A stretch of 50,883 nucleotides of DNA from Candidatus Nomurabacteria bacterium (GCA_026395915.1 JAPLXU010000017.1:3023-53905); one strand, 5' to 3'. Counted from the first letter of the stretch, positions 1,301-49,597 are shown. Translations and numbers: made by a program. The notes: generated by a model from the letters alone, not told the origin.

Positions 1301-1339
1301 CCCGCCTGCATCAGCTATGCTGAAAGCATTGCGGGCAGG
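1301..1339 (-). repeat. Palindromic element family A1 (PARNAS-type), 39 bp, intergenic
   Basis: Reverse complement cctgcccgcaatgctttcagcatagctgatgcaggcggg, near-identical to the secA copy. Confidence 0.9.
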
Positions 1340-1370
1340 AACGAAACAAAATAAAGAACAGCAAAAACTA

Positions 1371-1402
1371 AAAAAACATCACACGCAAGTGTGGTGTTTT
1401 TT
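1371..1402 (+). terminator. Intrinsic terminator downstream of 16S
   Basis: aaaaaacatcacac-gcaa-gtgtggtgtttttt hairpin with U tract. Confidence 0.7.
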
Positions 1403-1464
1403 GTTTTGACAAAAATTATTTTTTGATATATCTTGTGGAAGACAGTCAATTGCACAAAAGTTTT

Positions 1465-1614
1465 ATGGAACAAAAAAAAGAACAGTCCTGTCCTTCTGAA
1501 GAGCAGTATAAGCACCATCGTCTGGTCTTTCGGAGCTGGGAACCCAAATCTAAGCCCGAAGAACCAGATGACGATGGGAGGATTCTGGCCCTCCAACAGC
1601 AATATGCCAGTTAA
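1465..1614 (+). CDS. Possible small hypothetical protein (49 aa)
   Basis: ORF between a TTGACA promoter-like site (1406) and a hairpin terminator (about 1616-1660); no recognisable motif. Confidence 0.3.
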   Translation: MEQKKEQSCPSEEQYKHHRLVFRSWEPKSKPEEPDDDGRILALQQQYAS

Positions 1615-1728
1615 GTCAGGCCGTGTGTCACCCTCGAGGTGCTCACGGCCGATTTTTATTTATACCATTTTACAAAAGAGATTTTTGTGTTTGTGCGACA
1701 CTCATTACTGTGATAATATGTAACCATT

Positions 1729-2031
1729 ATGAATACATATCAGAAAGGTTCTGTCCGCACAATAATCTTTAAGGATAATGATGTGTGGGTTGGTGTTGCC
1801 TTAGAGTTTAATATTGTTGAAACTGGAGACGATCCTCGAGAAGTTTTTCTCATGCTTGATGAAGCCATTCGTGGATATGTTATTTCTGCCAAGAAATCAA
1901 AAATTCGCCCGAGTATTCTAAATCAAGTTTCCGATAAAGAATACGAAGATCTTTGGAAAAACTTAAATTCTCCCAAGCCAGTAAAATCCCCGTATCAAAT
2001 TTATAGTTTTGGGGAAAGAATAATTTCGTAA
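1729..2031 (+). CDS. hicB: HicB-like antitoxin (short, no obvious DNA-binding domain)
   Basis: WVGVALEFNIVETGDDPREVFLMLDEAIRGY resembles the HicB partial RNase H fold; adjacent to hicA. Confidence 0.7.
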   Translation: MNTYQKGSVRTIIFKDNDVWVGVALEFNIVETGDDPREVFLMLDEAIRGYVISAKKSKIRPSILNQVSDKEYEDLWKNLNSPKPVKSPYQIYSFGERIIS

Positions 2032-2036
2032 AAAAT

Positions 2037-2267
2037 ATGCCTCGCGGAATTAATAATTGGAGTTTTGCGGATGTAAAAAGATTTCTTTCCGATTATAATT
2101 TCAGATTAAGTCATGTCGAGGGCAGTCACTATTTTTATGTTGGTTCGGTTAAAGGAAGAGTACATCAAATTTGTGTGCCATTTCATAGCAATAAAGCAAT
2201 ACATCCAAAAACGATGAAAAGCATAATTAATCAGTCTGGAATTGAGATCAAAGAGTGGATTAAGTAA
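2037..2267 (+). CDS. hicA: HicA family mRNA interferase toxin
   Basis: GSH motif, VPFH, TMKSIINQSGI; 76 aa. Confidence 0.85.
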   Translation: MPRGINNWSFADVKRFLSDYNFRLSHVEGSHYFYVGSVKGRVHQICVPFHSNKAIHPKTMKSIINQSGIEIKEWIK

Positions 2268-2274
2268 AAATAAT

Positions 2275-4050
2275 GTGAATAAAGAATTTTTGGAAATAAT
2301 AAATGGATTTAAACGCACTTTGCGACTCATGGAAAAACCAGAGAAAACTGCTTTAGTTTTCGCGTCTTTCCTTATGCTCATTACTGGAGTTCTCACTAAC
2401 CTACCTGCTGTTATTTTAGGGCGTTTGGTGGATAAAATTGTCGGGGTAGAAAATTTTGATGTGAGTATTGCGGTTCCGTTTATTGCTTTAATAATCGGTA
2501 TAATTCTCATACGCGAAGTGCTAACTGTTGTAAGAAAATATTTTGTTGAAAATGTGGCGACACAAACTGATAAAAAACAGACAGTAAATGTCATTGAGCA
2601 TTTGCTTAAAACAGATATTGCAAATATTAATCAACAGCAAATCGGGTCGCTCCACGGAAGAATTTTTAGATCAATCCAAGGAATGATAAAAATTATCAAA
2701 CTCGGATTTCTCGATTTTTTTCCGGTTTTCTTCAGTGGACTAGCCGCAATTGCTATCGCACTAACTCAAAAACCATTACTGGCTAGCGTAATGGTTTTGG
2801 TAATTCCAGTTGGACTTTTCATCATTGTGTGGCAAGTTTCCTCGCAGAAAGGAATACGAGTGACTTTATTGCGAGGAAAAGAAAAAATCGACGGAGCAGT
2901 CGTTGAGATGCTTGGTGGTATAGAAACAGTGCGAGCATTGAATACTGAAAATAAAGAAGTGGCGAAAGTTGAAGAAGTTGCCGAAGCAATGAGAAAAAAA
3001 GAAATTAGGCATCATATTTTTATGGCGTTGTTTGATTCCGGAAAATATCTCAATGAGGCATTTTTCTATGTCATAGTAATTTCTCTTTCAATTTTTCTCG
3101 CGGCACAAGGAATAATCACAAAAGGCGACATTCTTGTTTATTCTATTCTGTTTTTGAGTATCACAGGACCATTGCGTGAAATTCATAGAATACTCGATGA
3201 AGCTCATGAAAGTTCAATTAGGGTAAATGACTTATATGATTTGCTCGATCAACCGAGAGATGTTTCTTTCCAAGCGAATGACAAAGAAAGATTTGCCTCA
3301 AACAACGCCAACGCAATAGAGATAAACAAACTATCTTTCAAATATGAAAATTCGCTAGTCTTGCAAGATATCAATTTCGTTATAAAGAACGGAGAGAAAA
3401 TCGGCATAGCTGGTGCGTCTGGTTGCGGTAAATCTACGCTCATAAAAATTCTATTACGATTAGTGCATGGCTATTCTGGAAACGTAGAGATTTTTGGCAA
3501 GAATTTGAATACCGTAAGCAGAGAAGAAATTGCGGATTGTATTGCATATGTGCCACAAAAGACACATATATTTTCGGGTTCTATAAAAGACAATATTGTT
3601 TATGGTTGCGAACGAGAGAATATCACAGATGAAGAAGTTATCAGAGCCGCAAAACTGGCGAATTTATATGAAGAGATAAAAAATTCACTCGGAGGATTAT
3701 CGGGCAGGGTCGCCGAGAATGGAAATAACTTGAGCGGTGGACAGAAACAGCGACTCGCTATTGCGCGACTGATATTAAAATCACCAGAACTATTGATACT
3801 TGATGAGGCGGCTTCTGCCCTAGATAATACGAACGAAATCAAAATTCAAAGAAACATTGAGCAATTGTTCAAAGATAAGACGACCATAACAATTGCTCAC
3901 CGACTGACGACGCTCAAAAACACTGATAGGATTTTTGTTTTTGAACGAGGCAGGATAGTCCAAGAAGGAACCTTTGACGGCCTCACCAACCAAAAAGGTC
4001 TCTTCCAAGATTTTTTAAGACAGAAAGAACCTGAGACTTTTTATTTGTAA
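2275..4050 (+). CDS. ABC exporter, fused TMD-NBD (MsbA/multidrug type); start uncertain (2242-2329)
   Basis: Multiple TM segments, Walker A GASGCGKST, LSGGQKQR, Walker B LLILDE, IAHRL. Confidence 0.92.
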   Translation: MNKEFLEIINGFKRTLRLMEKPEKTALVFASFLMLITGVLTNLPAVILGRLVDKIVGVENFDVSIAVPFIALIIGIILIREVLTVVRKYFVENVATQTDKKQTVNVIEHLLKTDIANINQQQIGSLHGRIFRSIQGMIKIIKLGFLDFFPVFFSGLAAIAIALTQKPLLASVMVLVIPVGLFIIVWQVSSQKGIRVTLLRGKEKIDGAVVEMLGGIETVRALNTENKEVAKVEEVAEAMRKKEIRHHIFMALFDSGKYLNEAFFYVIVISLSIFLAAQGIITKGDILVYSILFLSITGPLREIHRILDEAHESSIRVNDLYDLLDQPRDVSFQANDKERFASNNANAIEINKLSFKYENSLVLQDINFVIKNGEKIGIAGASGCGKSTLIKILLRLVHGYSGNVEIFGKNLNTVSREEIADCIAYVPQKTHIFSGSIKDNIVYGCERENITDEEVIRAAKLANLYEEIKNSLGGLSGRVAENGNNLSGGQKQRLAIARLILKSPELLILDEAASALDNTNEIKIQRNIEQLFKDKTTITIAHRLTTLKNTDRIFVFERGRIVQEGTFDGLTNQKGLFQDFLRQKEPETFYL

Positions 4051-4067
4051 ATTTGTATAATAAGACA

Positions 4068-4976
4068 ATGGCTAAAAAACAAATTGGAGTAATCAGAGGC
4101 GGGACGGGGGAGCATTATGCTTCGTCGCTCAAACGTGGCGGGGAAATTATTTCTCACATTTTTGAAAATCTACAAGACAAGTATAGAGTGGTTGATATTT
4201 TGATTGACAAGAAAGGCGTTTGGCATTTGGGTGGTGTGCCGATAGTTCCTGCTGACTTGATGAGCAAAGTTGATCTTGTTTGGAATATTTCCGATTCATC
4301 TTTATCTGCGACTCTTGATAGTTTATCTATTCCAAACATCAGCCACAATTCTTTTTCTTCTGCCTTTGTGAACAGTAAAGAAATGTTACGAGAACATATT
4401 AAACAAGTAGGTATTTCTATGCCGAAGTCCATCGTTTTGCCAGTCTACCAAAAAGATTTTGACGGCCCCCGTGAAAGATATAGCATAAAAAAAGCAAAAG
4501 AAATCCATGAAAAATTTTCAGCGCCGTGGATTGTGAAATCTTTTACTCTGGACTCCAATATGGCGGTGCATTTGGCGAAAACTTTTAATGAGTTAGTGGC
4601 TGGGATAGAAGATGGCGTGAAGCACGGAAAGAGTATTTTAATAGAAGAATTTATCACAGGGAAAGTGGCTTCGATGCATTCAGTGTCACATTTTCGTGGC
4701 AAGGAGACTTATGTCTTTCCGCCCGTAAGCGTCTTCGGCAACATTTCTTCTCTCGAAAAAGAAGAATTAACCAATCTCGCAAGAAATTTGCACAATCATC
4801 TCGGCGCCAAATATTATTTGAAATCAGATTTTGTTTTGAATAAAAATGGCAGAGTTTATTTTCTCGATTTTGATTTGATGCCAAATTTGAAATCGCATTC
4901 GCATTTTTCACAAGCCTGCGAGTCTGTTGGCGCAAAAATGTATCATGTGGTAGAACATATTATAGAAAATGCGTGA
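4068..4976 (+). CDS. ddl: D-Ala-D-Ala ligase family ATP-grasp protein, degenerate
   Basis: IGVIRGGTGEHYASSLKRG N-terminus, PWIVK, ILIEEFITG; several catalytic motifs altered. Confidence 0.7.
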   Translation: MAKKQIGVIRGGTGEHYASSLKRGGEIISHIFENLQDKYRVVDILIDKKGVWHLGGVPIVPADLMSKVDLVWNISDSSLSATLDSLSIPNISHNSFSSAFVNSKEMLREHIKQVGISMPKSIVLPVYQKDFDGPRERYSIKKAKEIHEKFSAPWIVKSFTLDSNMAVHLAKTFNELVAGIEDGVKHGKSILIEEFITGKVASMHSVSHFRGKETYVFPPVSVFGNISSLEKEELTNLARNLHNHLGAKYYLKSDFVLNKNGRVYFLDFDLMPNLKSHSHFSQACESVGAKMYHVVEHIIENA

Positions 4977-4982
4977 TAGTTA

Positions 4983-5055
4983 GGGCCGTTAGCTCACTTG
5001 GTAGAGCGCGCGCATGGCATGTGCGAGGTAACCGGTTCGATCCCGGTACGGTCCA
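4983..5055 (+). tRNA. tRNA-Ala(GGC)
   Basis: Cloverleaf, anticodon arm cgcgc-atGGCat-gtgcg, G3:U70 pair, GTTCGA T-loop. Confidence 0.95.
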
Positions 5056-5058
5056 CAA

Positions 5059-5130
5059 GCATCTTTAGCTCAGTGGTAGAGCGTCCCGTTCACATCGGGA
5101 AGGTCGTAAGTTCGATCCTTACAAGATGCA
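5059..5130 (+). tRNA. tRNA-Val(CAC)
   Basis: Anticodon arm tcccg-ttCACat-cggga; acceptor GCATCTT/AAGATGC. Confidence 0.95.
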
Positions 5131-5154
5131 CCCCCAAAGTTAGGTAAAAAATTT

Positions 5155-5228
5155 GGGCCTATAGTAAAGTGGTATTACACTACATTCGCATTGTAGGGGC
5201 GCGAGTCCGATTCTCGCTAGGTCCACCA
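5155..5228 (+). tRNA. tRNA-Ala(CGC)
   Basis: Anticodon arm ctaca-ttCGCat-tgtag, G3:U70, encoded CCA; T-loop reads TCCGA. Confidence 0.9.
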
Positions 5229-5278
5229 TTTATTAAATATCCATATTTTGTTAATATGAAATTTAAGGGCATGTGGCG

Positions 5279-5317
5279 CCCGCCCGCCATCGCTTCGCTC
5301 AGGCGAAAGCGGGCGGG
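5279..5317 (-). repeat. Palindromic element family A2, 39 bp
   Basis: Reverse complement matches 18086-18124 (1 mismatch); termini as in family A1. Confidence 0.9.
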
Positions 5318-5334
5318 GAATTGGTATATAATTT

Positions 5335-5421
5335 GCCGAAGTGGCGTAATTGGTAAACGCGCTGCGTTCAGGACGCAGTGAGGGTAACCTCGTAAGGGTT
5401 CAACTCCCTTCTTCGGCACCA
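5335..5421 (+). tRNA. tRNA-Leu(CAG)
   Basis: Anticodon arm ctgcg-ttCAGga-cgcag, long variable arm, CCA. Confidence 0.95.
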
Positions 5422-5422
5422 C

Positions 5423-5493
5423 CGGGCCGTAGTATACCGGTAGTACGCATCCTTCGGGAGGATGTAGATTGGGTTCGATTCCCAACGGCCCGA
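5423..5493 (+). tRNA. tRNA-Pro(CGG)
   Basis: Anticodon arm catcc-ttCGGga-ggatg; acceptor CGGGCCG/CGGCCCG. Confidence 0.95.
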
Positions 5494-5531
5494 CATTGCT
5501 TTAGCTTATTGATTGATTTATAATACGGAGT

Positions 5532-5903
5532 ATGAAAAAGGTTGTAAAAAATACAAATAAAAAAGACGAAAAAATGAATCGATATTTAGGCGCGCTTAAT
5601 GAAATACACGGTGAGACTCTTAAAGGGATTAGAGAAGGTTCTATTGTTGTGAATAGAAAACTTGATAAAATTACAGAGACTTTGTCGGAGCATACGAAAA
5701 TTTTAGATAAACACACAGAGATTTTATCTGAACATACAAAAAAGCTTGATTCGCACACAGAAATGATTGGAACTTTGATGGTTGACATGACCATAGTCAA
5801 AGAAGACCTTTCTGTGATAAAAAGCGACTTAAAAAAGAAAGTTGATTATGATGAATTTCAATCTTTAGTTAAAAGAGTTCAAAAAATAGAAGCGAAGATA
5901 TAA
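5532..5903 (+). CDS. Hypothetical coiled-coil protein with heptad repeats
   Basis: EHTKILD/KHTEILS/EHTKKLD/SHTEMIG heptads; TTGCTT-17-TATAAT promoter 7 nt before ATG. Confidence 0.8.
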   Translation: MKKVVKNTNKKDEKMNRYLGALNEIHGETLKGIREGSIVVNRKLDKITETLSEHTKILDKHTEILSEHTKKLDSHTEMIGTLMVDMTIVKEDLSVIKSDLKKKVDYDEFQSLVKRVQKIEAKI

Positions 5904-5957
5904 AAATGATTTTAATAATTAAAAAAACACATGTTAAAAACTTTAAATAAAAATTCA

Positions 5958-5971
5958 AGAGAGAGAGAGAG
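5958..5971 (+). repeat. (AG)7 simple sequence repeat
   Basis: Read directly; lies in a short ORF from ATG 5931 that is out of frame with the 6007 ORF. Confidence 0.9.
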
Positions 5972-6006
5972 TAGCATCCAACTTTTTAAGTTTTACAAAA
6001 ATTTTC

Positions 6007-6834
6007 ATGGATAAAGTACTAAAAAATACTTTAGTTTTTGTTTTTATGTTTGGTTTTTTTGTACCAACTTTTTCTCTTGCCTCTAACACCAACGGCACCA
6101 TAGATTCGACTTTTCGCTATGCTTGGGGAGAAAATATTGGTTTTGTTGATTTTGGTTCATCCGCCGGAAATGTTCATATCACAGATTCTGCGATTTCCGG
6201 TTCTTTCTATGGAGAAAATATCGGCTGGATAGATCTTTCTACAATCACAAATAATAATGAAGGCGTATTGTCCGGTTACGCTTGGGGAGAGAATGTTGGC
6301 TGGGTAGATTTTAGTAAGGTTACCATTGGTTCAGATGGTGTTTTTTCTGGTTCTGCTTATAATGGAAACGTTGGTTGGATAACTTTTGGCGCAGGCGATA
6401 ATAAAGTAGTTACAGATTGGCGGCCATTAAGCGCTCGTCCAAGACGCCATGGAGGAGGACGGCCAATAATTATTCCTTTACCAGCTACTCCTCCAACAAT
6501 TTCCATTCCATCTGCAACACCAACTGTTCCTGTCATTCCACCAATTATAATTCCAACCACCCCGCCTTCAGCTCCCCTCCTTAATGACGCGGGTGGTAAT
6601 TTCTGCAGTTTCTGCATTCCAACTTTCAATAATGGAAGCAAAGGTGAACCAGTCAAAGAGTTGCAGATATTCTTGAATAAAGCGTTGAAGTCAAATTTGG
6701 CAGTTGATGGAAAATTAGGTCCGAAAACATTTGCCGTAATCAAGAAATGGCAAAAAGCTAACGGTCTAAAAGCTGATGGTTTTGTCGGCCCAGCCACAAA
6801 AGCAAAAATGAATTTTGTTATTATTAATAAATAA
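6007..6834 (+). CDS. Secreted protein: YAWGENxGWxDF repeats, Pro-rich linker, C-terminal peptidoglycan-binding domain
   Basis: Signal peptide, four GENIGW-like repeats, PG_binding_1-like VKELQIFLN..VDGKLGPKT..WQKANGLKADGFVGPAT. Confidence 0.85.
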   Translation: MDKVLKNTLVFVFMFGFFVPTFSLASNTNGTIDSTFRYAWGENIGFVDFGSSAGNVHITDSAISGSFYGENIGWIDLSTITNNNEGVLSGYAWGENVGWVDFSKVTIGSDGVFSGSAYNGNVGWITFGAGDNKVVTDWRPLSARPRRHGGGRPIIIPLPATPPTISIPSATPTVPVIPPIIIPTTPPSAPLLNDAGGNFCSFCIPTFNNGSKGEPVKELQIFLNKALKSNLAVDGKLGPKTFAVIKKWQKANGLKADGFVGPATKAKMNFVIINK

Positions 6835-6848
6835 AAAAATATATAATT

Positions 6849-7955: not shown

Positions 7956-8000
7956 TTTGGTTATTTGGGTATTTGTTCATTTTGCATTTTTTTAAATCCA

Positions 8001-8658: not shown

Positions 8659-8697
8659 CACTCCCGCCTCCAGTCCCCAGTCTGTTTTATATTTCTT

Positions 8698-9986: not shown

Positions 9987-12554
9987 ATGTCTATTTTTAG
10001 CAAAGTTTTCGGCGACGAAAGCTCAAAATTCATTAAAAATGTGGCTGAAACGGTGGCCAAGATAAACGCTTTTGAAGCGGATATTTCGAAGTTGGCAGAT
10101 GAAGACTTTCCAAAGAAAACGAAGGAGCTCAAGGAAAGGCTAGGCAAGGGAGAGACATTGGACGACATTTTGCCTGAAGCTTTTGCTCTCGTTCGCGAAG
10201 CTATGAAACGCACGGATGGTATTCGTCTTTTTGATGTGCAGATGATCGGAGCGATAGCTTTACACAGAGGTCATATTGCGGAGATGAGAACCGGAGAAGG
10301 AAAAACGATGGTTGCTGTTCCTTCGGCATACTTGAACGCGCTTGAGGGTGGCGGGGTGCACATAGTTACCGTAAATGATTATTTGTCTCGCATCGGCGCC
10401 GTCTTGATGGGACAAGTTTATAATTTTTTGGGTTTGAGTGTTGGAGTCATAAATTCCAACAATGTTTCATATTTATATGATGCTACTCACAAAGAAGAAG
10501 ATCCCGAGCGCGACAAAGTGGGAGAATTTAAAATTGTCTATGATTTCTTGAAACCGTCTTCTCGAAGACAGTCGTATCAAGCGGATATCACTTATGGCAC
10601 CAATCACGAATATGGATTTGACTATCTGCGAGACAATTTAGCTACGAGTCTCGATGGTCTTGTGCAGAGAGGTCATCACTACGCCATTGTCGACGAGGTA
10701 GACTCTATTTTGATCGACGAAGCGCGTACTCCACTCATTATTTCTTCCGCGGCTGGTGACTCCGAAGATTTTTACGTTAAGTTTTATCAGATCGCTAAAC
10801 AATTAAAACGAGATACGGATTATGAAGTTGATGAAAAACTGAGAGCGATATCTTTGACTGACGCTGGCATCACCAAGGCTGAAACTCTTCTCGGCATCCA
10901 AAATATTTACACGGAAAAGGGCATAAAATATGTGCACCACTTGGAGACAGCCGTAAAAGCGCAAGCCATTTTTGAAAAAGACAAAGACTATGTCGTGAAA
11001 GAAGGCGAAGTCATCATCGTAGATCCTTTTACCGGACGTCTCCAGCCGGGTAGGCGTTGGTCCGAGGGCATCCATCAAGCGATTGAAGCGAAAGAAGGCG
11101 TGAAAATCGAAAAAGAAACTCGTTCGTCTGGTTCGATTACTTTCCAGAATTATTTCAGATTTTACAAAAAGCTTTCCGGCATGACGGGCACGGCGGAAAC
11201 TTCTGCTGAAGAATTTTTAAAAGTTTACGGATTAGACGTCATCGTGATTCCGACGAATCGTCCCGTCGTCCGCATAGACCACAACGATTTGATTTTCCAA
11301 ACAGAGAAAGGGAAATTTGAAGCCATTGCAAAAAAAGTCAAAGAGCTGAACACGAAAGGCGTGCCGGTTTTGATAGGCACCATTTCCATAGAAAAAAACG
11401 AGCTTCTTTCCGCATATCTAAAGCAAGAAGGCGTGCCTCATGTTATTTTGAACGCAAAAAATCATGAAAAAGAAGGTGAAATTATCGCTCAGGCCGGCAA
11501 ACGTGATGCGGTAACTATAGCCACGAACATGGCTGGACGCGGAATCGATATCAAGCTCGGTGGCAATCCTATCGTCAAATCTGAATACGAATTCGTGAAA
11601 GGCGCTGGCGGACTTTTTGTCTTGGGCACGGAACGTCATGAAGCGAGAAGAATCGACAACCAGCTTCGAGGCCGTTCCGGCAGACAAGGCGATCCGGGCG
11701 AGACTCAATTTTATGTTTCGCTCGAAGATGACTTGATGCGCGTATTCGGTTCAGAAAAAATAAAAACGATGATGGGACGTTTCGGCATACCGGAAGATCA
11801 GCCGATCGAAAATCGTTTCATTGGTAGGACTCTCGAAGGAGCGCAAGCCAAAATAGAGGGCTTTCATTTTGATGCCAGAAAAAACACTCTCGAATATGAC
11901 GATGTGATGAATCATCAACGCAAAATTATTTACGAGCGAAGGCAAAAGATGTTGAGAGCGGACAAAAATGAGATAGAAGAGTTGCTCAAAAATGTGACAG
12001 AAGGAAAAGAAGGCGCGGACAAGATCGTTGAAGAAAAAAGAAAGAAATTGGGCGAGGAAGCATTTTTGGAAGTCATTCGTCGCATTGCTCTCTACACTAC
12101 CGATACGCTTTGGATGGAACATTTGGAGGCGATGGATTATCTGCGCGGTTCAGTAAATTTGCGAGCATACGGACAACGCGAGCCGATTGTTGAATATAAA
12201 AAAGACGGACTCATGATGTTTAAAGAAATGGAAGAAACTTTCAAAGAGCAAGTTTTTTCTTTGATCGGTACTATTACAGAACCAGCTAAAGCGGAAGACA
12301 ATGCTCCCAAGCAGACTTTGGTAGTAAGTCAAGCAGAATCTTCCGAGCTCGACGAAGAAAAAGAGGCATCTCCACAAATAGGAGACATGAAACCTGCCCG
12401 CAATGCTTCAGGCATAGCTGATGCAGGCGGGGATATTGGCCGTAATGACCCCTGTCCATGCGGAGCAATTAATCCAGCCACTGGCGAAGTCTACAAATAT
12501 AAAAAATGCGGTTTGATAAATGCTCCCCAACATCGAAAGTCGTTGATAAATTAA
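9987..12554 (+). CDS. secA: Preprotein translocase subunit SecA
   Basis: MRTGEGKT, IVDEVDSILIDEARTPLIIS, TIATNMAGRG, QLRGRSGRQGDPG, GRNDPCPCG. Confidence 0.99.
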   Translation: MSIFSKVFGDESSKFIKNVAETVAKINAFEADISKLADEDFPKKTKELKERLGKGETLDDILPEAFALVREAMKRTDGIRLFDVQMIGAIALHRGHIAEMRTGEGKTMVAVPSAYLNALEGGGVHIVTVNDYLSRIGAVLMGQVYNFLGLSVGVINSNNVSYLYDATHKEEDPERDKVGEFKIVYDFLKPSSRRQSYQADITYGTNHEYGFDYLRDNLATSLDGLVQRGHHYAIVDEVDSILIDEARTPLIISSAAGDSEDFYVKFYQIAKQLKRDTDYEVDEKLRAISLTDAGITKAETLLGIQNIYTEKGIKYVHHLETAVKAQAIFEKDKDYVVKEGEVIIVDPFTGRLQPGRRWSEGIHQAIEAKEGVKIEKETRSSGSITFQNYFRFYKKLSGMTGTAETSAEEFLKVYGLDVIVIPTNRPVVRIDHNDLIFQTEKGKFEAIAKKVKELNTKGVPVLIGTISIEKNELLSAYLKQEGVPHVILNAKNHEKEGEIIAQAGKRDAVTIATNMAGRGIDIKLGGNPIVKSEYEFVKGAGGLFVLGTERHEARRIDNQLRGRSGRQGDPGETQFYVSLEDDLMRVFGSEKIKTMMGRFGIPEDQPIENRFIGRTLEGAQAKIEGFHFDARKNTLEYDDVMNHQRKIIYERRQKMLRADKNEIEELLKNVTEGKEGADKIVEEKRKKLGEEAFLEVIRRIALYTTDTLWMEHLEAMDYLRGSVNLRAYGQREPIVEYKKDGLMMFKEMEETFKEQVFSLIGTITEPAKAEDNAPKQTLVVSQAESSELDEEKEASPQIGDMKPARNASGIADAGGDIGRNDPCPCGAINPATGEVYKYKKCGLINAPQHRKSLIN
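12393..12431 (+). repeat. Family A1 element in frame in secA (PARNASGIADAGG)
   Basis: cctgcccgcaatgcttcaggcatagctgatgcaggcggg, 39 bp. Confidence 0.92.
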
Positions 12555-17979: not shown

Positions 17980-18085
17980 TATAGTATATAGATAACCTTG
18001 TTTTTAGGCTTCCAAGCTTAATAAATAAGGCTTTTTTAGTTTATTGGCGGTTTTAGACTAGAAATATACAGTTACTGAATTGGCA

Positions 18086-18124
18086 CCTGCCCGCTTTCGC
18101 CTGAGCGAAGCGATGGCGGGCGGG
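18086..18124 (+). repeat. Family A2 element, 39 bp, in a 5' leader
   Basis: cctgcccgctttcgcctgagcgaagcgatggcgggcggg. Confidence 0.9.
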
Positions 18125-18142
18125 GAGCAAAACCGCTTTAAT

Positions 18143-18775
18143 ATGGAAAATAGAAAATGGGTGCGATTTGTGGAGTCTTTCGTGGTTTTACCAATTTTAA
18201 CAATATCATCAGTGCCTGTGGGGCCTATCTCACAAGCCGTAGTAGGTGTTGTTAATACTCCATCAATTGTGTCTTTTCAAAAACAAAATAATGAAGCTTC
18301 TGGTTCTTTGGCTGTTAATGATGCCACGGACGAGAAGCTAGAAGCGGAGAAAATCAAAGCGGAAGCTATTGATAGTTATTTCAAGACGCATGGTATGCCA
18401 TTAGAAGGTATGGGCATGAAGATGGTTTTGGAAGCTGAAAAGAACGAAATTGATTGGCGCCTTTTGCCTGCGATATCTGTCAGGGAATCGACGGGTGGTC
18501 AGAATGATTGCAAAAAAGTTAATTTTAACGCTTTTGGTTGGGGTTCATGCAAAATCGGTTTTAAATCAACAGAAGAAGCTATTGAAGTTGTGGCTAAAAA
18601 TTTGGGAGGCAATAATCCAAAAACTGAACATTATTATGACAACAAAACTACAAAGCAAATCTTGCGCGCCTATAATCCACCTTCCGTCGTGTCTCGTTAT
18701 GCCGAGCAGGTGATGAACATCATGGATACTATTGGTAAAGCGGACGAGGTAGTAATTCCTAATACAACCACATAA
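18143..18775 (+). CDS. Membrane-anchored or secreted lysozyme/glucosaminidase-like protein
   Basis: N-terminal hydrophobic segment; LLPAISVRESTGG (putative catalytic Glu), NAFGWG, YNPP..YAEQV. Confidence 0.7.
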   Translation: MENRKWVRFVESFVVLPILTISSVPVGPISQAVVGVVNTPSIVSFQKQNNEASGSLAVNDATDEKLEAEKIKAEAIDSYFKTHGMPLEGMGMKMVLEAEKNEIDWRLLPAISVRESTGGQNDCKKVNFNAFGWGSCKIGFKSTEEAIEVVAKNLGGNNPKTEHYYDNKTTKQILRAYNPPSVVSRYAEQVMNIMDTIGKADEVVIPNTTT

Positions 18776-25336: not shown

Positions 25337-25358
25337 TGTCAAAGACCGTCTTTGACAT
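25337..25358. repeat. REP-like palindrome family C overlapping the RAYT stop codon
   Basis: tgtcaaagaccgtctttgacat, preceded by GTAG (25333-25336). Confidence 0.88.
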
Positions 25359-25965
25359 CGTAAATTAATGTTTGTTTTTTAAAATTGTTAATGTCACCAA
25401 AAGTTCCAATTAATAATTCTTTATTTATTATTGGCAGATTCCTGTCAGAAGCATAGTCATTATAACTGCTCCACAAATATTCGGATGGGTGTTTTACGAT
25501 TTTATCTTTAACAGGGTTCATGTGAATGTAAGCTGATGTCCACATTAGTTGAGGATTATTTTCTATTAAAACAGCTTTAAAACAATCTTGAAAAGCATGT
25601 CCTACACGACCATACTTATTATTTATATATTTTGAATAACTTGAACAGACTCTTGAAATTAGTTTTGAAATTGATATATCGCCACACTGTTCAATTAAAA
25701 AGTGAAAATGATTAGGCATAAGGCAAAAAGCATTAATTTTGAATTTACTTTTTCCTTCAGATTTAATTCTTATCCTGGAATAAGGCATACTCAACAATTT
25801 CTCACCCCTCAATTCTTTCTGATCAAATCCTAAAGCTAAGGCAAGTCTAAATAGGAAAGCTTTATAATCTTGATCATCAAAAAATATTTTTTCTTTATTA
25901 TTACCTCTATTATAAATATGGGCAATTGATCCGGCATTAAATTTTTTGTAGTCTCTATTATTCAT
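25339..25965 (-). CDS. REP-associated tyrosine transposase (RAYT; Y1/HUH, IS200-like TnpA)
   Basis: HIYNRGNNKEKIF, FCLMPNHFHFL (HUH), YIHMNPV (catalytic Tyr), WSSY; flanked by palindromes. Confidence 0.92.
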   Translation of the reverse strand: MNNRDYKKFNAGSIAHIYNRGNNKEKIFFDDQDYKAFLFRLALALGFDQKELRGEKLLSMPYSRIRIKSEGKSKFKINAFCLMPNHFHFLIEQCGDISISKLISRVCSSYSKYINNKYGRVGHAFQDCFKAVLIENNPQLMWTSAYIHMNPVKDKIVKHPSEYLWSSYNDYASDRNLPIINKELLIGTFGDINNFKKQTLIYDVKDGL

Positions 25966-29154: not shown

Positions 29155-29190
29155 CCTGCCCGCAATGCTTTGCATAGCGATGTAGGCGGG
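29155..29190 (+). repeat. Family A1 element, 36 bp, intergenic
   Basis: cctgcccgcaatgctttgcatagcgatgtaggcggg. Confidence 0.9.
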
Positions 29191-36733: not shown

Positions 36734-38113
36734 ATGCCTAAATCAAATGGCCGTTCAATAAAAAAGACAAGAAAAATATACTTGGATTACGCATCAAGCG
36801 CTCTTTCTCAAACTGCAAACCCGGGAGCGATACATGAATTGGGAGTGAAGGAAAAAAATAAACTTGAAAGCGCAAGGGCAACTGTAGCAAAAATTTTGAA
36901 TGCGCAGAATGCAGAAATTATTTTTACATCAGGCGCGACGGAGAGTAACAATCTGGCAATTTTGGGGTTGGTGTATGCGGGACAAGAGCAAGGTTTTCTC
37001 AGGTCCTCGGTTCTCCGGGTCCCTTCCCCGGCCAGACCTTTCAAAAATCTTGCTCTTGTCCCGCATATCGTGACGACAAACATTGAACATGCGTCTGTGT
37101 TGGAAACCTGCAAGCATTTAGAAAAAATGAAACAAGCGGAAGTAACTTATGTGCCAGTGGAAGAAAACGGAATTGTCGATGTGAAGAAAATAAAAAAAGC
37201 TCTGAAACTAAACACAGTTCTAGTTTCTGTCATGTATGCAAACAACGAAATCGGCACGATACAACCTATACGAGAGATTGCGAAGGAAATTCGACATTGG
37301 AGAAAAACACACCTCACCCGCTTTCAGCACCCTCTCCTTGGTAAGGAGAGGGTCGGGGTGAGGTTCCCTTTTTTCCACACCGACGCCACGCAAGCGGTGA
37401 ATTATTTGCCGATAAGTGTTCCACAACTTGGTGTTGATCTGATGTCTATGAACAGCGCAAAAATTTATGGACCGAAAGGTATTGGAGCTTTGTATGTGAA
37501 AAAGAATACGCCGATAGGAAAAATTATGTTCGGCGGAGATCAAGAGTTCGGTTTGCGACCAGGAACAGAAAACGTGGCTCTGGCTGTCGAATTTGCTAAG
37601 ACACTTCAAACTGTTGAAAAAATAAAAGAACAAGAAGTGAAAAGATTAGCCAAACTCCGGGATTATTTTTTTGAAAAAATTTTAGAAAATACTAAAAACT
37701 TTGCTATCGCGGAAAGTTTAGTAAATTTTGAAATAATTTTGAATGGTGACCAGAAAAATAGATTGCCAAACAATGTAAACATCACTATTCCAAACATTCC
37801 GAGCGATCTTTTGGTAATAGAGTTATCAGCGAAGGGGATAATGGCCTCGGCAAAAAGTGCTTGCAAATCCGGAGATGGTAAGGCTTCGCATGTCATCGAA
37901 GCGATTCGGCATGGAGCAAAACCTGCCCGCAATGCTTCAGGCATAGCTGATGCCCGCCCGCATGACTCGCAACAGCGTGTCGGGCAAGCAGGCGGGGAGG
38001 AAGACGGGTCTTTGAGATTTTCTTTGGGTAGAGAAACAACTAAATCAGACATTGATTACACCGTAAAAGCTTTGTCAGAAATTTTGGCTAAATTAAAAAA
38101 GTGGTATGATTAA
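36734..38113 (+). CDS. iscS: Cysteine desulfurase (IscS/NifS-like) carrying three palindromic insertions
   Basis: IYLDYAS, IIFTSGATESNN, IEHASV, NNEIGTIQP, HTDATQA, KIYGPKG, SAC, LRFSLG. Confidence 0.9.
   Translation: MPKSNGRSIKKTRKIYLDYASSALSQTANPGAIHELGVKEKNKLESARATVAKILNAQNAEIIFTSGATESNNLAILGLVYAGQEQGFLRSSVLRVPSPARPFKNLALVPHIVTTNIEHASVLETCKHLEKMKQAEVTYVPVEENGIVDVKKIKKALKLNTVLVSVMYANNEIGTIQPIREIAKEIRHWRKTHLTRFQHPLLGKERVGVRFPFFHTDATQAVNYLPISVPQLGVDLMSMNSAKIYGPKGIGALYVKKNTPIGKIMFGGDQEFGLRPGTENVALAVEFAKTLQTVEKIKEQEVKRLAKLRDYFFEKILENTKNFAIAESLVNFEIILNGDQKNRLPNNVNITIPNIPSDLLVIELSAKGIMASAKSACKSGDGKASHVIEAIRHGAKPARNASGIADARPHDSQQRVGQAGGEEDGSLRFSLGRETTKSDIDYTVKALSEILAKLKKWYD
36974..37067. repeat. 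Long hairpin insertion in iscS (19-bp perfect outer arms)
   Basis: tatgcgggacaagagcaag / cttgctcttgtcccgcata. Confidence 0.85.
37311..37364. repeat. Family B element in frame in iscS, 54 bp
   Basis: acctcaccc..accctctcctt-ggt-aaggagagggt-c-ggggtgaggt. Confidence 0.85.
37922..37996 (+). repeat. Family A1 element with nested 36-bp insert, in frame in iscS (75 bp)
   Basis: First 32 nt and last 7 nt identical to the secA copy; extra sequence at 37954-37989. Confidence 0.88.
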
Positions 38114-42490: not shown

Positions 42491-42494
42491 AAAT

Positions 42495-43232: not shown

Positions 43233-43237
43233 ATTAA

Positions 43238-44758: not shown

Positions 44759-44858
44759 TGCGTTAGGTCTTGCCTTGCGCAAGAAAATTTTTGACAAAAA
44801 AATATTAAGATGTAATCTAAATAAAGAATAGTAAAAACAAACAAAACTTAATAAGATC

Positions 44859-45320
44859 ATGGAAAGAATCATCGTTTCTGAAAATGGATGCGGGGTGGTG
44901 GCTGTGCTAGAAGCACCTAAAACAAGGCTTCTTCAGCTAGTTATCACCGCAAAGGTTGGCGGCACAAAAAAAGTGCTTGTCAAAAATGGGACCCCATTTC
45001 CAATCTCGATCGAGTGTGTTCCCACTCATGAAGTGGATATGTGGGTTGAAGATGTGGCCAATGCTGTGGACAGAGAGTTGAGTCACGATGTAGGTTTTAA
45101 CATTATGTTTATCTGCGAGAGTACTCCTTTACTCAGAAACTATCGCAGGAGGACGACGGAGGTCTTTGTCTACACAGCAGACTTTCCGTCGGAAAATATC
45201 GGAACTATCGCTCCTGGAGCATATTCGTTTAACTGGGTTGACGCTGAACAGGTCTCCAATTTGCTCTTTGCTGAAAAAGAGGACAGGGCAACTCTTCTTC
45301 TTGCGCTATCGCCCGACTGA
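44859..45320 (+). CDS. Hypothetical protein
   Basis: 153-aa ORF with upstream TTGACA and a downstream hairpin/U tract. Confidence 0.65.
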   Translation: MERIIVSENGCGVVAVLEAPKTRLLQLVITAKVGGTKKVLVKNGTPFPISIECVPTHEVDMWVEDVANAVDRELSHDVGFNIMFICESTPLLRNYRRRTTEVFVYTADFPSENIGTIAPGAYSFNWVDAEQVSNLLFAEKEDRATLLLALSPD

Positions 45321-45489
45321 ATCCGCTCGACGGGGGGAAGAACTCGTCGCAGCGGGTTTTTCTTTTATATTTTATTTTTAACGGATTATTTCCACCATTT
45401 GAGCCATTGTCTGCTAGTGCCTGCAAGGCAAGACCTGGCAATTTTAAGCTTCATGAAGATTTCACTTTTTGGTGGTATTATAGAAATAT

Positions 45490-46164
45490 ATGAAAATATT
45501 AGTTGTTGAAGATAACAAGAAGTTGGCGGAGAATTTGAAACAGGGACTTATGCAGGAAGGCTATGCTGTGGACGTAATAGAAGACGGACTTATCGCGGAG
45601 CGTCGTATTTTGTTCAATCGCGATGAATACGATCTTGTGATTTTAGACAGGATGCTTCCGGGGAAAGATGGGGTTTTGATTTGCGACAGTTGGCGAGAAA
45701 ATGGCGTTGTGGTTCCTATCTTAATGTTGACAGCGCTAGGCACGACAGATGACAAGGTGGTGGGGCTTGATTCCGGAGCGGATGATTATTTGGCGAAGCC
45801 ATTTGCTTTCAAAGAACTACTCGCTCGCATTCACGCTTTGCTCAGGCGCCCGAAACAAACTTTTCCTGATATACTTACTTCTGGCAACATCAGCATCAAC
45901 ACCACGAGCAGGACAGTGACTTTCAAAAGCAAACCCGTTTCACTCACGCTCAAGGAATTCATGGTGTTAGAATACATGATGCGCCATCCGAACAAAGTAG
46001 TGACTCGGGATGAACTTTATTCTCACGCATGGGACTTTGCGGATTCGTCATTTAGCAACACTGTCGATGTGCATATAAAAAATCTGAGAAAGAAAATTCA
46101 TGATAATGCAAAAATTATACAAACAATTCGCGGAGTCGGTTACAAAATGGAAAATAAGTCATAA
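45490..46164 (+). CDS. OmpR-family response regulator
   Basis: KILVVED, DRMLPG, GADDYLAKPF, VDVHIKNLRKK, TIRGVGY. Confidence 0.96.
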   Translation: MKILVVEDNKKLAENLKQGLMQEGYAVDVIEDGLIAERRILFNRDEYDLVILDRMLPGKDGVLICDSWRENGVVVPILMLTALGTTDDKVVGLDSGADDYLAKPFAFKELLARIHALLRRPKQTFPDILTSGNISINTTSRTVTFKSKPVSLTLKEFMVLEYMMRHPNKVVTRDELYSHAWDFADSSFSNTVDVHIKNLRKKIHDNAKIIQTIRGVGYKMENKS

Positions 46165-47131
46165 GGCTGACGAGTTTTTCATAGCGCGTCTCAGACTTAC
46201 TTTTTTTTATTTTATCACAGCGGTTGTGATTTTGGGTGGCGCCAGTTTCGCTCTTTACAATACAATTCTTTCTAATTTTTCTCAATCAATTTCAGAAAAT
46301 ATTTTTTTGGATCCGAATGTTTCGCAAGCGATTATAGACAGAGCTCAAGACATACTTCTTAATCGTTTTTTGACGATAGATGCTGTAATAGTTTTTTTTA
46401 TTGTCGTCTTGGGTTTCTTTCTAACAAATAAGACGCTGAAGCCGATCAAACTAAATATGCAGAAACAGAAAAGATTTATTGCAGACGCTTCACACGAACT
46501 TCGCACTCCAATTGCTGTGGTCATTTCAGGTTTGGAAGTGAATCTCAGCAACAAAAAATTGGATCTTACTTCAGCCAAGAAAACACTTGAAGACACCTTG
46601 GAAGAAATGAAGGAATTTTCAAAACTTGCCAACAGCTTGCTTGATATTTCAAAGTATGACACGCCGATACAAATAGCTCGAGAGCCCATCGTTATCAATG
46701 AATTGATAAAATCCATCGTGGAGAAAGAAAAGAGTCTGGCTCAAGTCAAACAAATAAAAATTGAGGCAAAGATAGAATCATCGGCGGTAGTAAATGTAAA
46801 TAAAATAGAATTAACTCGGGTGTTTTTCAATATTTTAGACAATGCAATCAAATATACTCCTCAGAATGGGATTGTCACAGTGTCAGACAAAATCGATTCA
46901 AATAAATACACGCTCTCCGTTAGTGACAATGGTCCCGGTATTCCAAAAGATATTTTGAGTAAAATTTTTGAGCCGTTTTTTAGAGGCGACTTGTCTCGAA
47001 GCACGGAAGGCGCTGGGCTTGGGCTTACGCTTTCAAAAAAAATCATTGAAAATCATGATGGAACTATATTCATAAAAAGCCAAGTGGGTAAAGGCACGAA
47101 TGTGATTATTTGTTTGCCTATCTCTTCATAA
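46100..47131 (+). CDS. Sensor histidine kinase (start may be 46106)
   Basis: 2 TM, H-box ASHELRTP, NILDNAIKY, DNGPGI, GAGLGL. Confidence 0.95.
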   Translation: MIMQKLYKQFAESVTKWKISHKADEFFIARLRLTFFYFITAVVILGGASFALYNTILSNFSQSISENIFLDPNVSQAIIDRAQDILLNRFLTIDAVIVFFIVVLGFFLTNKTLKPIKLNMQKQKRFIADASHELRTPIAVVISGLEVNLSNKKLDLTSAKKTLEDTLEEMKEFSKLANSLLDISKYDTPIQIAREPIVINELIKSIVEKEKSLAQVKQIKIEAKIESSAVVNVNKIELTRVFFNILDNAIKYTPQNGIVTVSDKIDSNKYTLSVSDNGPGIPKDILSKIFEPFFRGDLSRSTEGAGLGLTLSKKIIENHDGTIFIKSQVGKGTNVIICLPISS

Positions 47132-47239
47132 TGAATTCATTCAATAAAGATACTCTTTAAATATACATATGGTCATATGTATAAGCATTATAAATAATTA
47201 ATTTCCAAGTTTATTAATTTAATTAAAATAAAAAATCAT

Positions 47240-47653
47240 ATGAAATATAAAAAACAAATAGCCACAGGTGCGTTAGCAATATCATTATTAGTCGGAGGCT
47301 CGAATGTTTTTGCCTCGACTCCTCAAGATTTGGGAATAAAAAATATTCAATCGATTTATCAGAAACAAAATAAAGATAACAAGAATCAAAAAGCTAAAAG
47401 TAATTTAAAAAACAATGTAGTTGGGACAGTTGGGGCTATAAATGGTTCAGGTTTTACAGTCGAGGTTAAAAATAAGAAGACAAAAATCACGTCGTCAACG
47501 GATATTAGCACGAATGCTTTAACCAAATATAGCAAGAATGGGGTAAAGGTAACATTGTCTGATTTGGCAGGGGGGCAGAAGGTGATTGTCGTCGGAACTC
47601 TCGATAAAACAACAAATATTTTGACGGCGAAGACAGTGAAAATAGTCAAATAA
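47240..47653 (+). CDS. Secreted protein, DUF5666-like OB-fold
   Basis: Signal peptide; VGTVGAINGSGFTV..LSDLAGGQKVIVVG..LTAKTV. Confidence 0.7.
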   Translation: MKYKKQIATGALAISLLVGGSNVFASTPQDLGIKNIQSIYQKQNKDNKNQKAKSNLKNNVVGTVGAINGSGFTVEVKNKKTKITSSTDISTNALTKYSKNGVKVTLSDLAGGQKVIVVGTLDKTTNILTAKTVKIVK

Positions 47654-47746
47654 ATAAAAAGCTTTACTTTGTTTCCTTGTTATGTTATTATCTATATAGC
47701 TTTCAAAAAAGCCTAATGTTCTCTGGGGCTTTTTTGTTTGATATTT

Positions 47747-49597
47747 ATGGAAATACGAAATATAGCAATAATAGCTCACGTTGACCACGGCAAAACCACT
47801 TTGACGGACGCCTTGATGAAGCAAAATGGCGGATTCCAAGATGAAGGATTATCTATGGATTCGAATGCTCTAGAAAAAGAGCGTGGTATTACTATTTACG
47901 CAAAAAACACTTCTATCTATTACAAGGATACGAAGATAAATATCGTTGATACTCCCGGTCACGCGGATTTCGGTTCGGAAGTGGAACGCGTTTTGCGCGC
48001 AGTCGACTGTGTGCTTCTTCTGGTTGACGCTGTCGAAGGACCGATGCCTCAGACTAGATTTGTCTTGAAAAAATCCTTAGAGCTCGGGCTCAAGCCCATT
48101 GTCGTTATAAATAAAATAGACAAGCCGGCGTCTGAACCGCACCGGGTACATAACGAGATACTAGATTTGTTTTTTGAATTGGGAGCAGATGACGAACAAG
48201 CGAATTTTGAAACAGTTTATGCAATCGGACGCGAGGGGAAAGCTTTTAAAAATTTAGGCGACAAATCGGAAAATCTTTCTCCGCTTCTTGATGTGATCTT
48301 GGAAAAAGTTTCACCAGCTTCCACAGACCAAGGCGGAAAAATGTCCGCGCAAGTTTTTAATTTGGGTTATGACAATTTTTTGGGCAGAATGGCAGTTGCG
48401 AGAATTTATTCTGGAAAAATGTTGTCCGGAAGTTCTATTTTTGTGAAAGGTGAAAACGGTATACGAAAAGGAAAAATAGCCCAGCTCTTTTCTTTTGAAG
48501 GCATAGACAGAAAAGAAGTGGATTACGCCACCTCCGGCGATATTGTGCTCCTCGCTGGAATTCCTGACATCTATATTGGAGAAACATTGTGCGAAGACGA
48601 AAGTGTGGAACCTCTGCCTCACATTGCAATTGACGAGCCGACCTTATCTCTTAATTTTTTGGTGAATGATTCTCCATTTGCTGGCAAAGAAGGGAAGTTC
48701 GTTACCTCGAGACAGCTCAAAGAGAGGTTGGAAAAAGAACTCGAAGTGAATGTCGGACTGAAAGTTGATTTTTCTCCTGCCCGCAATGCTTCGCATAGCG
48801 ATGCAGGCAGGCCGGACCAAGGCGACAAGAAATCCGGTCCGAGCTTTTTCAAAGTGTATGGAAGAGGCGAATTACACCTCGCGATACTTCTCGAATACAT
48901 GCGTCGAGAAGGATTTGAAATGCAAGTCTCCCAGCCGGAAGTTATCATCAAAGAAAAAGACGGAGTGAAGACAGAACCTTACGAAGAGCTTGTGATTGAT
49001 GTTCCAATGGAAGCGAGCGGTGGCGTTATAGAAAAGATCGGCAAGCGTCGTGGCATTATGAAGGATATGGTGGAAAAACAAGGTATAGCGAGAATCGTTT
49101 TTGACATACCGACACGCGGGCTTTTGGGTTACCGCGGAGAATTCATCGTTGATACCAAAGGCGAAGGCATAATGAGTTCGAGAGTTACAGGCTTCAGAGA
49201 ATACGCAGGAGAAATAAAAAAACGTGAGTATGGTTCGATGACTTCCATGGTTTCTGGCAAGGCAGTAGCCTTCGCGCTTGCAAATTTACAGGAACGTGGT
49301 ATTCTGTACGTAGGGCATGGGACGGAGGTTTATGAAGGTATGGTTGTCGGTAATGTTTTGAAGGGAGACGACATGTCGGTGAATCCCACAAAAGGGAAAC
49401 AACTTACGAACATGCGAGCTTCTGGCACCGACGAGGCTATAGTTCTCAATCCAGTTTTTGCCCTGAATATCGAACGAGGTCTCGAGGTTATGAATGAAGA
49501 TGAGTATCTTGAAATTACTCCGAAGTCAGTCAGGCTTCGCAAGAAGTATCTAACGGAACTGGATAGGAAAAAATATTTTACAAGCCTTAACAAATAA
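47747..49597 (+). CDS. typA: Translational GTPase TypA/BipA
   Basis: IRNIAIIAHVDHGKTTL, ERGITI, DTPGHADFGSEVER, GRGELHL, KQLTNMRASG. Confidence 0.98.
   Translation: MEIRNIAIIAHVDHGKTTLTDALMKQNGGFQDEGLSMDSNALEKERGITIYAKNTSIYYKDTKINIVDTPGHADFGSEVERVLRAVDCVLLLVDAVEGPMPQTRFVLKKSLELGLKPIVVINKIDKPASEPHRVHNEILDLFFELGADDEQANFETVYAIGREGKAFKNLGDKSENLSPLLDVILEKVSPASTDQGGKMSAQVFNLGYDNFLGRMAVARIYSGKMLSGSSIFVKGENGIRKGKIAQLFSFEGIDRKEVDYATSGDIVLLAGIPDIYIGETLCEDESVEPLPHIAIDEPTLSLNFLVNDSPFAGKEGKFVTSRQLKERLEKELEVNVGLKVDFSPARNASHSDAGRPDQGDKKSGPSFFKVYGRGELHLAILLEYMRREGFEMQVSQPEVIIKEKDGVKTEPYEELVIDVPMEASGGVIEKIGKRRGIMKDMVEKQGIARIVFDIPTRGLLGYRGEFIVDTKGEGIMSSRVTGFREYAGEIKKREYGSMTSMVSGKAVAFALANLQERGILYVGHGTEVYEGMVVGNVLKGDDMSVNPTKGKQLTNMRASGTDEAIVLNPVFALNIERGLEVMNEDEYLEITPKSVRLRKKYLTELDRKKYFTSLNK
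48776..48811 (+). repeat. Family A1 element in frame in typA (PARNASHSDAGR), 36 bp
   Basis: cctgcccgcaatgcttcgcatagcgatgcaggcagg. Confidence 0.92.

Follow-up and report, generated by a model that had tools for sequence, protein, structure and literature searches.

The window, by which we mean the whole 50,883-nt stretch analysed here from a Candidatus Nomurabacteria bacterium (GCA_026395915.1, JAPLXU010000017.1:3023-53905), carries several copies of a short hairpin-forming repeat that we refer to as family A, and three of these copies are located inside the genes for SecA, an IscS-like desulfurase and TypA. The first-pass annotation had claimed seven copies in this DNA, and direct reading combined with a regular-expression scan located all seven, which are listed below together with an element of another family, C, that is nested in one of them (ORF, open reading frame; aa, amino acids; T4SS, type IV secretion system):

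1301-1339, minus strand: family A1 copy of 39 nt, TTTCAGC variant, either non-coding or making up the final 7 codons of a 95-aa ORF that lacks support (1315-1602)
5279-5317, minus strand: hairpin of the sister family A2, 39 nt, between tRNA-Ala (5155-5228) and tRNA-Leu (5335-5421)
12393-12431, plus strand: family A1 copy of 39 nt in SecA, in frame, reading PARNASGIADAGG
18086-18124, plus strand: A2 hairpin of 39 nt at the 5' edge of ORF 18080-18775 (weak Glucosaminidase match), of ambiguous coding status
29155-29190, plus strand: family A1 copy of 36 nt, intergenic between two T4SS-pilin-like ORFs, with a TAA stop immediately before it
37922-37996, plus strand: composite copy of 75 nt in the IscS-like gene, adding 25 residues (aa 397-421)
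37953-37988, plus strand: nested family C element of 36 nt, CCCGCCCGCATGACTCGC...GGGCAAG, read as RPHDSQQRVGQ
48776-48811, plus strand: family A1 copy of 36 nt in TypA/BipA, in frame, reading PARNASHSDAGR, inserted exactly between TCT and CCG

The host genes were recognized by their Pfam matches to SecA_DEAD (E 7.9e-115), to Aminotran_5 (E 1.7e-49), which makes the IscS-like host a class-V aminotransferase of the IscS/NifS type, and to GTP_EFTU (E 9.7e-53) together with BipA_C (E 3.8e-39). As had been proposed, strand and reading frame are common to the three coding copies, and their open frames suggest that the inserts are translated as a loop of 12-13 aa in otherwise unrelated proteins (an example of a junction peptide is VDFSPARNASHSDAGRPDQGDK). 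Within SecA, the insert lies in a hypervariable linker just ahead of the CPCG zinc-finger motif at the C terminus. In the IscS-like gene, the composite has the same 39-nt sequence as the copy in secA, interrupted after GATG by the 36-nt family C element, and it reads PARNASGIADA(RPHDSQQRVGQ)AGG in the frame of its host. No match was obtained in a Pfam search with the 95-aa ORF at 1315-1602. The interpretation proposed in the first-pass annotation was supported, with two points that had to be amended. A1 and A2 had been treated as one family, but they have only their termini in common, and A2 is a sister family, of which the genome contains just the two 39-nt copies in the window, in mutually inverse orientation. 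Also, the length of 36 or 39 nt, stated to apply even to intergenic copies, holds within the window but not elsewhere, where variants of 35, 37 and 38 nt are located at the ends of ORFs or between genes.

That the shared peptide might be an ancestral segment of each protein family was ruled out by aligning each host gene to 29 orthologues from the same genus. The 12 insert residues of TypA and the 25 insert residues of IscS were missing in all 29 orthologues, and the SecA insert was found in none of the 27 alignment rows that cover the region. In the DNA alignments, all 8 typA orthologues have a gap of exactly 36 nt, between TCT and CCN, and all 7 iscS orthologues have one of exactly 75 nt, between AAA and GAN. 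No duplicated flank was seen at the typA or iscS junctions in these alignments, nor at clean pairs of filled and empty sites. The copies are lineage-specific insertions. In the reverse comparison, in which open-frame copies from other species of the genus were aligned to this genome, 8 of the 14 aligned copies lie opposite a gap of precisely 12 or 13 codons, and the rest fall in variable loops. The copies are polymorphic between species of a single genus, and the same gene can carry the insert at a different site in another species, as in TypA of genome G046 and IscS of genome G011.

Four IscS orthologues (L081, L082, L084 and L097) have other extra residues in the loop that holds the insert here. 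Also, a different repeat-encoded insert (SPQPSPERRG...) was observed in G000 (C11 15970-16338 and C1 3454-3816) where G007 or G013 has a PARNAS copy, so that the same protein loops accept different elements in different species.

An assembly artefact was ruled out as well, since many independent assemblies contain the element and contigs from public sequencing runs carry the typA junctions, which answers the concern over read support in the first-pass annotation. Both typA junctions are covered by Logan contigs of run X2, possibly the sample from which the genome came, and the left one also by those of X8. None of the run contigs was continuous across the typA site with the element missing, although contigs cannot show absence. 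The Logan contigs of X2, X8, X9 and X18 break inside the element (window 48776-48809), and the summed depth of the bin that holds it was about 1,700-3,800 in four runs, as compared to roughly 4-12 in the flanking covered bins, which indicates that the repeat is abundant in the community.

We examined all copies in the 812-kb genome. A search with the 15-nt left arm, allowing for at most one mismatch, gave 28 matches, and the reversed control gave none; in total, 31 left-arm matches were collected, of which two lack a right arm and 29 represent complete copies. Among the complete copies, 24 lie in sense frame 0 within open frames of 100 codons or more; these include a 38-nt copy whose own sequence provides the stop codon, and a few copies close to ORF ends. 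The remaining five are intergenic or at gene ends. None of the 29 lies inside an ORF in any other frame. Under a stricter rule, restricted to non-composite copies and demanding at least 30 open codons on each side, the counts were as follows:

This genome, 23 copies: frame 0 open in 14, another frame only in 0, no frame open on both sides in 9
Loci from 8 other species of the genus, 54 copies: frame 0 in 18, another frame only in 4, none in 32
Distant loci with a GC content below 0.47, 89 copies: frame 0 in 32, another frame only in 8, none in 49

Frame 0 thus accounts for all 14 copies with an open frame in this genome, for 18 of 22 in the other species of the genus and for 32 of 40 in the low-GC distant loci; loci with a high GC content are uninformative for this purpose because open frames arise there by chance. 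Avoidance of stop codons cannot by itself explain the bias, since most frames of the element are free of stops (5 of 6 for the 36-mer and 3 of 6 for the 39-mer). Variants with lengths that are not multiples of three (35, 37 and 38 nt) had no frame open on both sides in 16 of the 20 cases counted, and the 38-nt and some 39-nt variants contain an in-frame TAG or TAA that ends the ORF. Sub-variants of 38 or 39 nt with the inner stem AAAGC-ATA-GCTTT were seen to provide the last codons and the stop of an ORF in G000 (C1 30182-30219) and in L110, L111, L139 and L222.

In 22 of the 24 coding copies, the element is oriented in agreement with the local GC skew. The other two run against the skew and are nevertheless in line with their gene, and the five non-coding copies are split 3 to 2. 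On these grounds we see selection on the encoded sequence as the main cause of the bias, and a replication-strand bias as the sole cause of orientation is not supported, small as the numbers are. Insertions probably land in any phase and orientation, and inside genes only those in frame 0 of the sense strand would survive. The frame-0 reading would be a hydrophilic loop that starts with proline and ends with two glycines (PARNAS..AGG), suited to surface loops or linkers, while the other readings of the element are hydrophobic, rich in cysteine, or interrupted by stops.

Strict use of one strand and frame could also be expected if the segment were a selected functional module that had been recruited repeatedly, acting either at the peptide level as a tag or loop or as a hairpin in the mRNA that adjusts its translation or decay. 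The single copies form stable RNA hairpins (-16 to -22.5 kcal/mol), and the stop-carrying variants lie at the 3' ends of ORFs, where a hairpin could act on the transcript. We consider this extremely improbable, since the sites are not conserved between sister species, the host proteins are unrelated, intergenic copies occur in both orientations and the insert in IscS is predicted to be disordered; moreover, the peptide changes wherever the stem covaries. As DNA as well as RNA, every copy forms an imperfect hairpin, with z-scores for DNA folding of -1.6 to -4.9. In the 36-mer, positions 1-6 pair with 31-36, 12-14 with 28-30 and 16-19 with 23-26, leaving a 5-nt bulge in the 5' arm and an ATA loop. 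The stem pair 16-26 is UA in 21, AU in 12, GC in 3 and GU in 3 of 44 distinct 36-mers. Standard pairs were found in 94.4% of 572 cells, as compared to 30-50% when the partners were slid by 1-3 columns, and the observed covariation score was reached by none of 500 shuffles, the inner stem being the only part free to vary because the search pattern had set the arms. With the covarying changes, the pairing is retained and the peptide varies (S/T/A and D/V/A), which argues that the nucleic-acid structure rather than the peptide is conserved. The 39-mer differs from the 36-mer by one more base pair in the stem and one further T, such that both pairing and reading frame are kept. This change suggests that coding copies may themselves seed new copies.

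Other elements are nested at two fixed sites of the family A hairpin. In three variants of A, family B or a relative of 33 nt is found after TCG or ACG, in the apical loop, and in three variants (in this window, at C6 30332 and at L105 in G007) family C is found after GATG, in the 3' bulge. Further nestings were seen in loci across the phylum. Nested copies are invariably located within another hairpin, in its loop or bulge, or else in the D- or anticodon-arm regions of tRNA gene fragments. Mobilisation may proceed on single-stranded DNA at hairpin loops. In the predicted structure of the IscS-like protein (mean pLDDT, the per-residue confidence score, of 76), the insert at residues 397-421 falls within a coil (395-423) with a pLDDT below 50, located between confidently modelled elements.

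We also surveyed the distribution of the element. Same-genus genomes contained it in 8 of 18 cases in a first draw and in 23 of 40 in a second, with 1 to 24 matches each, and it was found in none of 12 genomes from other families of the order. A scan of public genomes, with one genome per species, recovered at least 121 stretches, with a locus GC content ranging from 0.27 to 0.63. By reading the titles, 80 titled rows were classified into 45 from many classes of the Candidate Phyla Radiation (CPR), 20 from Verrucomicrobia, Kiritimatiellia or Lentisphaerae, which belong to the Planctomycetes-Verrucomicrobia-Chlamydiae (PVC) group, 9 from Gammaproteobacteria or Pseudomonadales, 2 from Bdellovibrionales, 1 from Woesearchaeota and 3 unnamed. 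Two contigs with the element were present in a viral collection. Some titles are unreliable: L192 and L197 are titled Saccharibacteria and represent the same DNA as L282 and L007, from a genome in the genus of the window, for which other titles read Nomurabacteria. The cross-phylum claim therefore rests on the high-GC PVC loci, and the spread from CPR to PVC is its secure part. Whole 36-mers are identical between loci with GC contents of about 33% and about 60%, and near-identical copies are present in distant phyla.

Family A is probably a miniature, non-autonomous hairpin repeat, similar to repetitive extragenic palindromes (REPs) and the Rickettsia palindromic elements (RPEs), that has been inserted precisely and without target duplication at many sites of a Nomurabacteria-type CPR genome, and that survives inside genes solely in one benign frame. 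The RPEs, credited to Ogata et al. in 2000, are reportedly palindromes found in frame in many unrelated and probably functional genes of a reduced genome, where they add a peptide and have no transposase inside the element; RPE-1 is said to measure about 100-150 bp. Family A shares with them the in-frame palindromic insertion into unrelated ORFs that stay open, but is far smaller (36 or 39 nt), lacks the CGTC tag of RPE-4 and RPE-6, uses one reading frame almost exclusively, and occurs in CPR and PVC rather than in the Rickettsiales, with near-identical copies that cross phyla. The small dispersed repeats of cyanobacteria, attributed to Elhai et al. in 2008, are likewise said to be very short and mobile, to nest in one another and to occur inside genes; family A would differ from them in sequence, host range and termini. 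The lack of a target-site duplication means that it is not a classical miniature inverted-repeat transposable element, and it also differs from palindrome-associated elements derived from IS200/IS605 in having no conserved tetra- or pentanucleotide directly on its 5' side.

With the REP/REPIN sequences, family A has in common that it is an imperfect palindrome of 20-40 nt present in many copies. It has neither a GTAG nor a CGTC tag at any of the 58 ends examined, nor is any RAYT gene flanked by it. According to Di Nocera et al. (2013, PMC3733652), GTAG- and CGTC-tagged REPs are palindromes of 20-40 bp that are in part located inside genes; the largest number of intragenic GTAG copies is reported for the verrucomicrobium Opitutus terrae, and the CGTC type is described as having no known transposase. 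Family A, in contrast, is mostly intragenic in this genome (24 of 29 copies) and occurs as single units instead of dimers. Family A thus behaves like the REPs and the Rickettsia RPEs but is a member of neither. It falls within a known class of in-frame palindromic repeats, and what is new is the unusually small size, the strict codon phasing and the wide host range. No description of such elements in CPR was found in a full-text literature search, nor did a word search of ten supplementary files of PMC11893778 return any CPR names.

The clean junctions in typA and iscS would fit the duplication-free, peel-and-paste transposition of Y1 transposases, which according to sections of PMC11893778 makes no target duplication and uses hairpins. 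The hairpins could accordingly be elements of the REP type, mobilised on single-stranded DNA by an IS200/RAYT-like Y1 transposase of the genome itself. Eight matches to PF01797 (Y1_Tnp), each in an ORF of 189-234 aa, were identified in this 0.8-Mb genome, and one of them, an IS200/RAYT-like ORF of 208 aa, lies inside the window (25339-25965, minus strand). We consider this origin very unlikely. Seven of the eight Y1 genes are flanked by a different, AT-richer and gene-specific hairpin of about 21-25 nt (picked by eye), each of which occurs at just 1-9 places in the genome with up to 3 mismatches, and no family A copy was found within 300 nt on either side of the eight genes. In addition, the GTAG tag was absent from the 58 family A ends, and no conserved tetranucleotide was seen on the 5' side of the target. 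A link to RAYT was rejected, since the hairpins that flank the Y1 genes are unrelated to family A and low in copy number.

The search for an autonomous element with the same termini, as suggested in the first-pass annotation, yielded a candidate, found in other genomes only: a small gene for a GIY-YIG nuclease that has the hairpin on its 5' side. Among the 123 loci obtained in scans of public data, the most recurrent neighbour was a single-domain GIY-YIG ORF of about 80 aa, recovered from 8 loci and located within 67 nt of the hairpin in 7 of them. These ORFs match PF01541 with E-values of 1e-12 to 1e-15; Pfam gives no other domain, and all NCBIfam matches fell below the cut-offs. The best solved relative by sequence is a UPF0213 protein, 1zg2 (E 1.2e-5). 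The recurrent layout consists of a 5' fragment of a tRNA gene, the hairpin, the continuation of the tRNA fragment, the GIY-YIG ORF and an intact tRNA gene. L280, L281, L282, L268, L196, L184, L219, L315 and others have the GIY-YIG gene placed between a duplicated tRNA 5' fragment, split by a GC-rich hairpin, and the intact tRNA.

Within the genus, 1 to 7 homologues of the small GIY-YIG gene were identified in 35 of 41 genomes. All three homologues with an identity of at least about 70% to the query L268 abut family A, as compared to none of the 27 more distant ones, and most of these distant loci have a hairpin of their own or inverted repeats, including an A2-like hairpin that is split around the gene. 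Across the phylum, 16 of 401 genomes gave a GIY-YIG match with an E-value of 1e-24 or better; about 15 of the 18 homologue loci repeat the arrangement of tRNA, hairpin, gene and tRNA, with hairpins that have CCYGCCNGC...GCNGGCRGG termini, and exact family A is present in one of the 18, L315. Other clades of the small nuclease were observed inside inverted repeats, for example CCCGTTAGAGAT...ATCTCTAACGGG.

A comparable arrangement is described in parts of Chenal et al. (2025, PMC11893778) for Ssn, where a small single-domain GIY-YIG gene lies beside its cognate SRM/NTS hairpin, many orphan hairpins are dispersed in the genome, and different clades of the nuclease pair with different hairpins. 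In other genomes family A adjoins a small GIY-YIG gene (at 7 loci within 67 nt and at 3 of 3 close homologues in the genus), and in this genome no such gene was found. The hairpin stands on one side of the gene, inside the duplicated tRNA 5' fragment, whereas Ssn hairpins flank both sides. None of the 29 copies, with 10-nt flanks included, matches the degenerate SRM motif as given in the portion of PMC11893778 that describes it. By analogy with Ssn and SRM, and given that the gene has the hairpin directly upstream in other genomes, the enzyme that mobilises family A could be this nuclease of about 80 aa, supplied in trans; we regard this as quite possible and put it forward tentatively, the partner being a plausible one. 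The nuclease gene is not in the assembly, and the copies in the window are therefore orphans, either relics or mobilised from outside.

Several observations weigh against our interpretation of family A as a mobile repeat read in frame, or against the candidate nuclease as its partner. GIY-YIG nucleases hydrolyse DNA, and their fold is not known for any strand-transfer activity. Chenal et al. (PMC11893778) demonstrate cleavage rather than transposition. A search of this genome, which is 95.65% complete and has 28 left-arm matches, gave no homologue of the small GIY-YIG gene, and its sole PF01541 match is an open frame of 407 aa. Genome G007, which is rated 100% complete and consists of 6 contigs, has 24 matches, and its only GIY-YIG homologues are 47-50% identical to L268 and located far from the copies. 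No conserved target motif or duplication that would point to a known mechanism was found at the insertion sites: the 5' flanks vary (ATG, AAG, ACT, TAT, GGA, TCT, AAA and others), and the flanks tend only to be A-rich on the 5' side and to have G or GA on the 3' side. A replication-strand effect may contribute to the orientation, with 22 of 24 coding copies following the GC skew, and the translation of the inserts is deduced from open frames. The model of TypA, with a mean pLDDT of 56, is too poor for placing the loop. Finally, no run recorded as RNA was listed as holding the typA stretch; contigs of one RNA run, X18, match the element itself only, in other contexts, and give no information on the expression of typA.

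The absence of a close nuclease homologue from the genomes richest in copies, this one and G007, would be expected if no dedicated enzyme were involved and the repeats were spread by replication or repair in the host, such as template switching at hairpins, or by uptake of foreign DNA, with the GIY-YIG genes as secondary parasites or antagonists that home beside the hairpins. These genes do occur beside or inside many different hairpins and inverted repeats, and according to PMC11893778 the Neisseria Ssn cuts incoming single-stranded DNA and does not move repeats. Nevertheless, we judge this explanation to be unlikely. It is hard to see how 36-mers could be identical, interior included, at GC contents of 33% and about 60% without propagation that is specific for the sequence, and the pairing between nuclease clade and hairpin family is specific (3 of 3 close versus 0 of 27 distant homologues).

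A broader proposal takes mobile family A and its candidate nuclease together. Family A and the sister hairpins with CCYGCCNGC...GCNGGCRGG termini might be the dispersed, codon-phased (3n) half of a minimal mobile system that has not been described before, the other half being the gene for the GIY-YIG nuclease of about 80 aa, active on single-stranded DNA and housed in duplicated tRNA fragments. The hairpins would insert into single-stranded loops without target duplication, cross phyla (CPR, PVC and others) and persist in essential genes of gene-dense genomes by virtue of a harmless Pro...Gly-Gly loop. Taken as a whole, this proposal is speculative, and we hold it to be doubtful.

Family A, a probable selfish element, illustrates that such an element can live in protein-coding DNA in streamlined genomes with almost no intergenic space, the key to this niche being a length of 12-13 codons that can be read as a benign loop. 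Inserts of this kind make the housekeeping proteins of CPR longer and more diverse, can confound alignments and phylogenies, and break metagenome assemblies, as seen from the Logan contigs that end inside the element. If the link to the GIY-YIG nuclease is true, it would offer a way to explain the spread of REP- and RPE-type repeats that have no transposase, and it would add new sequence-specific nucleases for single-stranded DNA beyond the Ssn family.

Two further observations were made in the window. The flanks of the A2 hairpin at 5279-5317 look, when compared by eye, like a diverged duplicate of the 5' part of the tRNA-Leu gene: in the segment 5267-5334, GGGCATGTGGCG and GAATTGGTA are similar to the tRNA-Leu beginning at 5335, at its positions 1-12 and 13-21. 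The segment has the layout of a GIY-YIG cassette minus the nuclease ORF and may thus be the remnant of one. The IscS-like gene contains a second insert of 12 aa that is specific to it, GFLRSSVLRVPS, at residues 87-98 (window about 36992-37040), which derives from a further repeat family, GGTCCTCGGTTCTCCGGG...CCCCGGCCAGACC, that is present 7 times in the genome. Together with family A and the nested family C element, this amounts to three repeat insertions in one gene.

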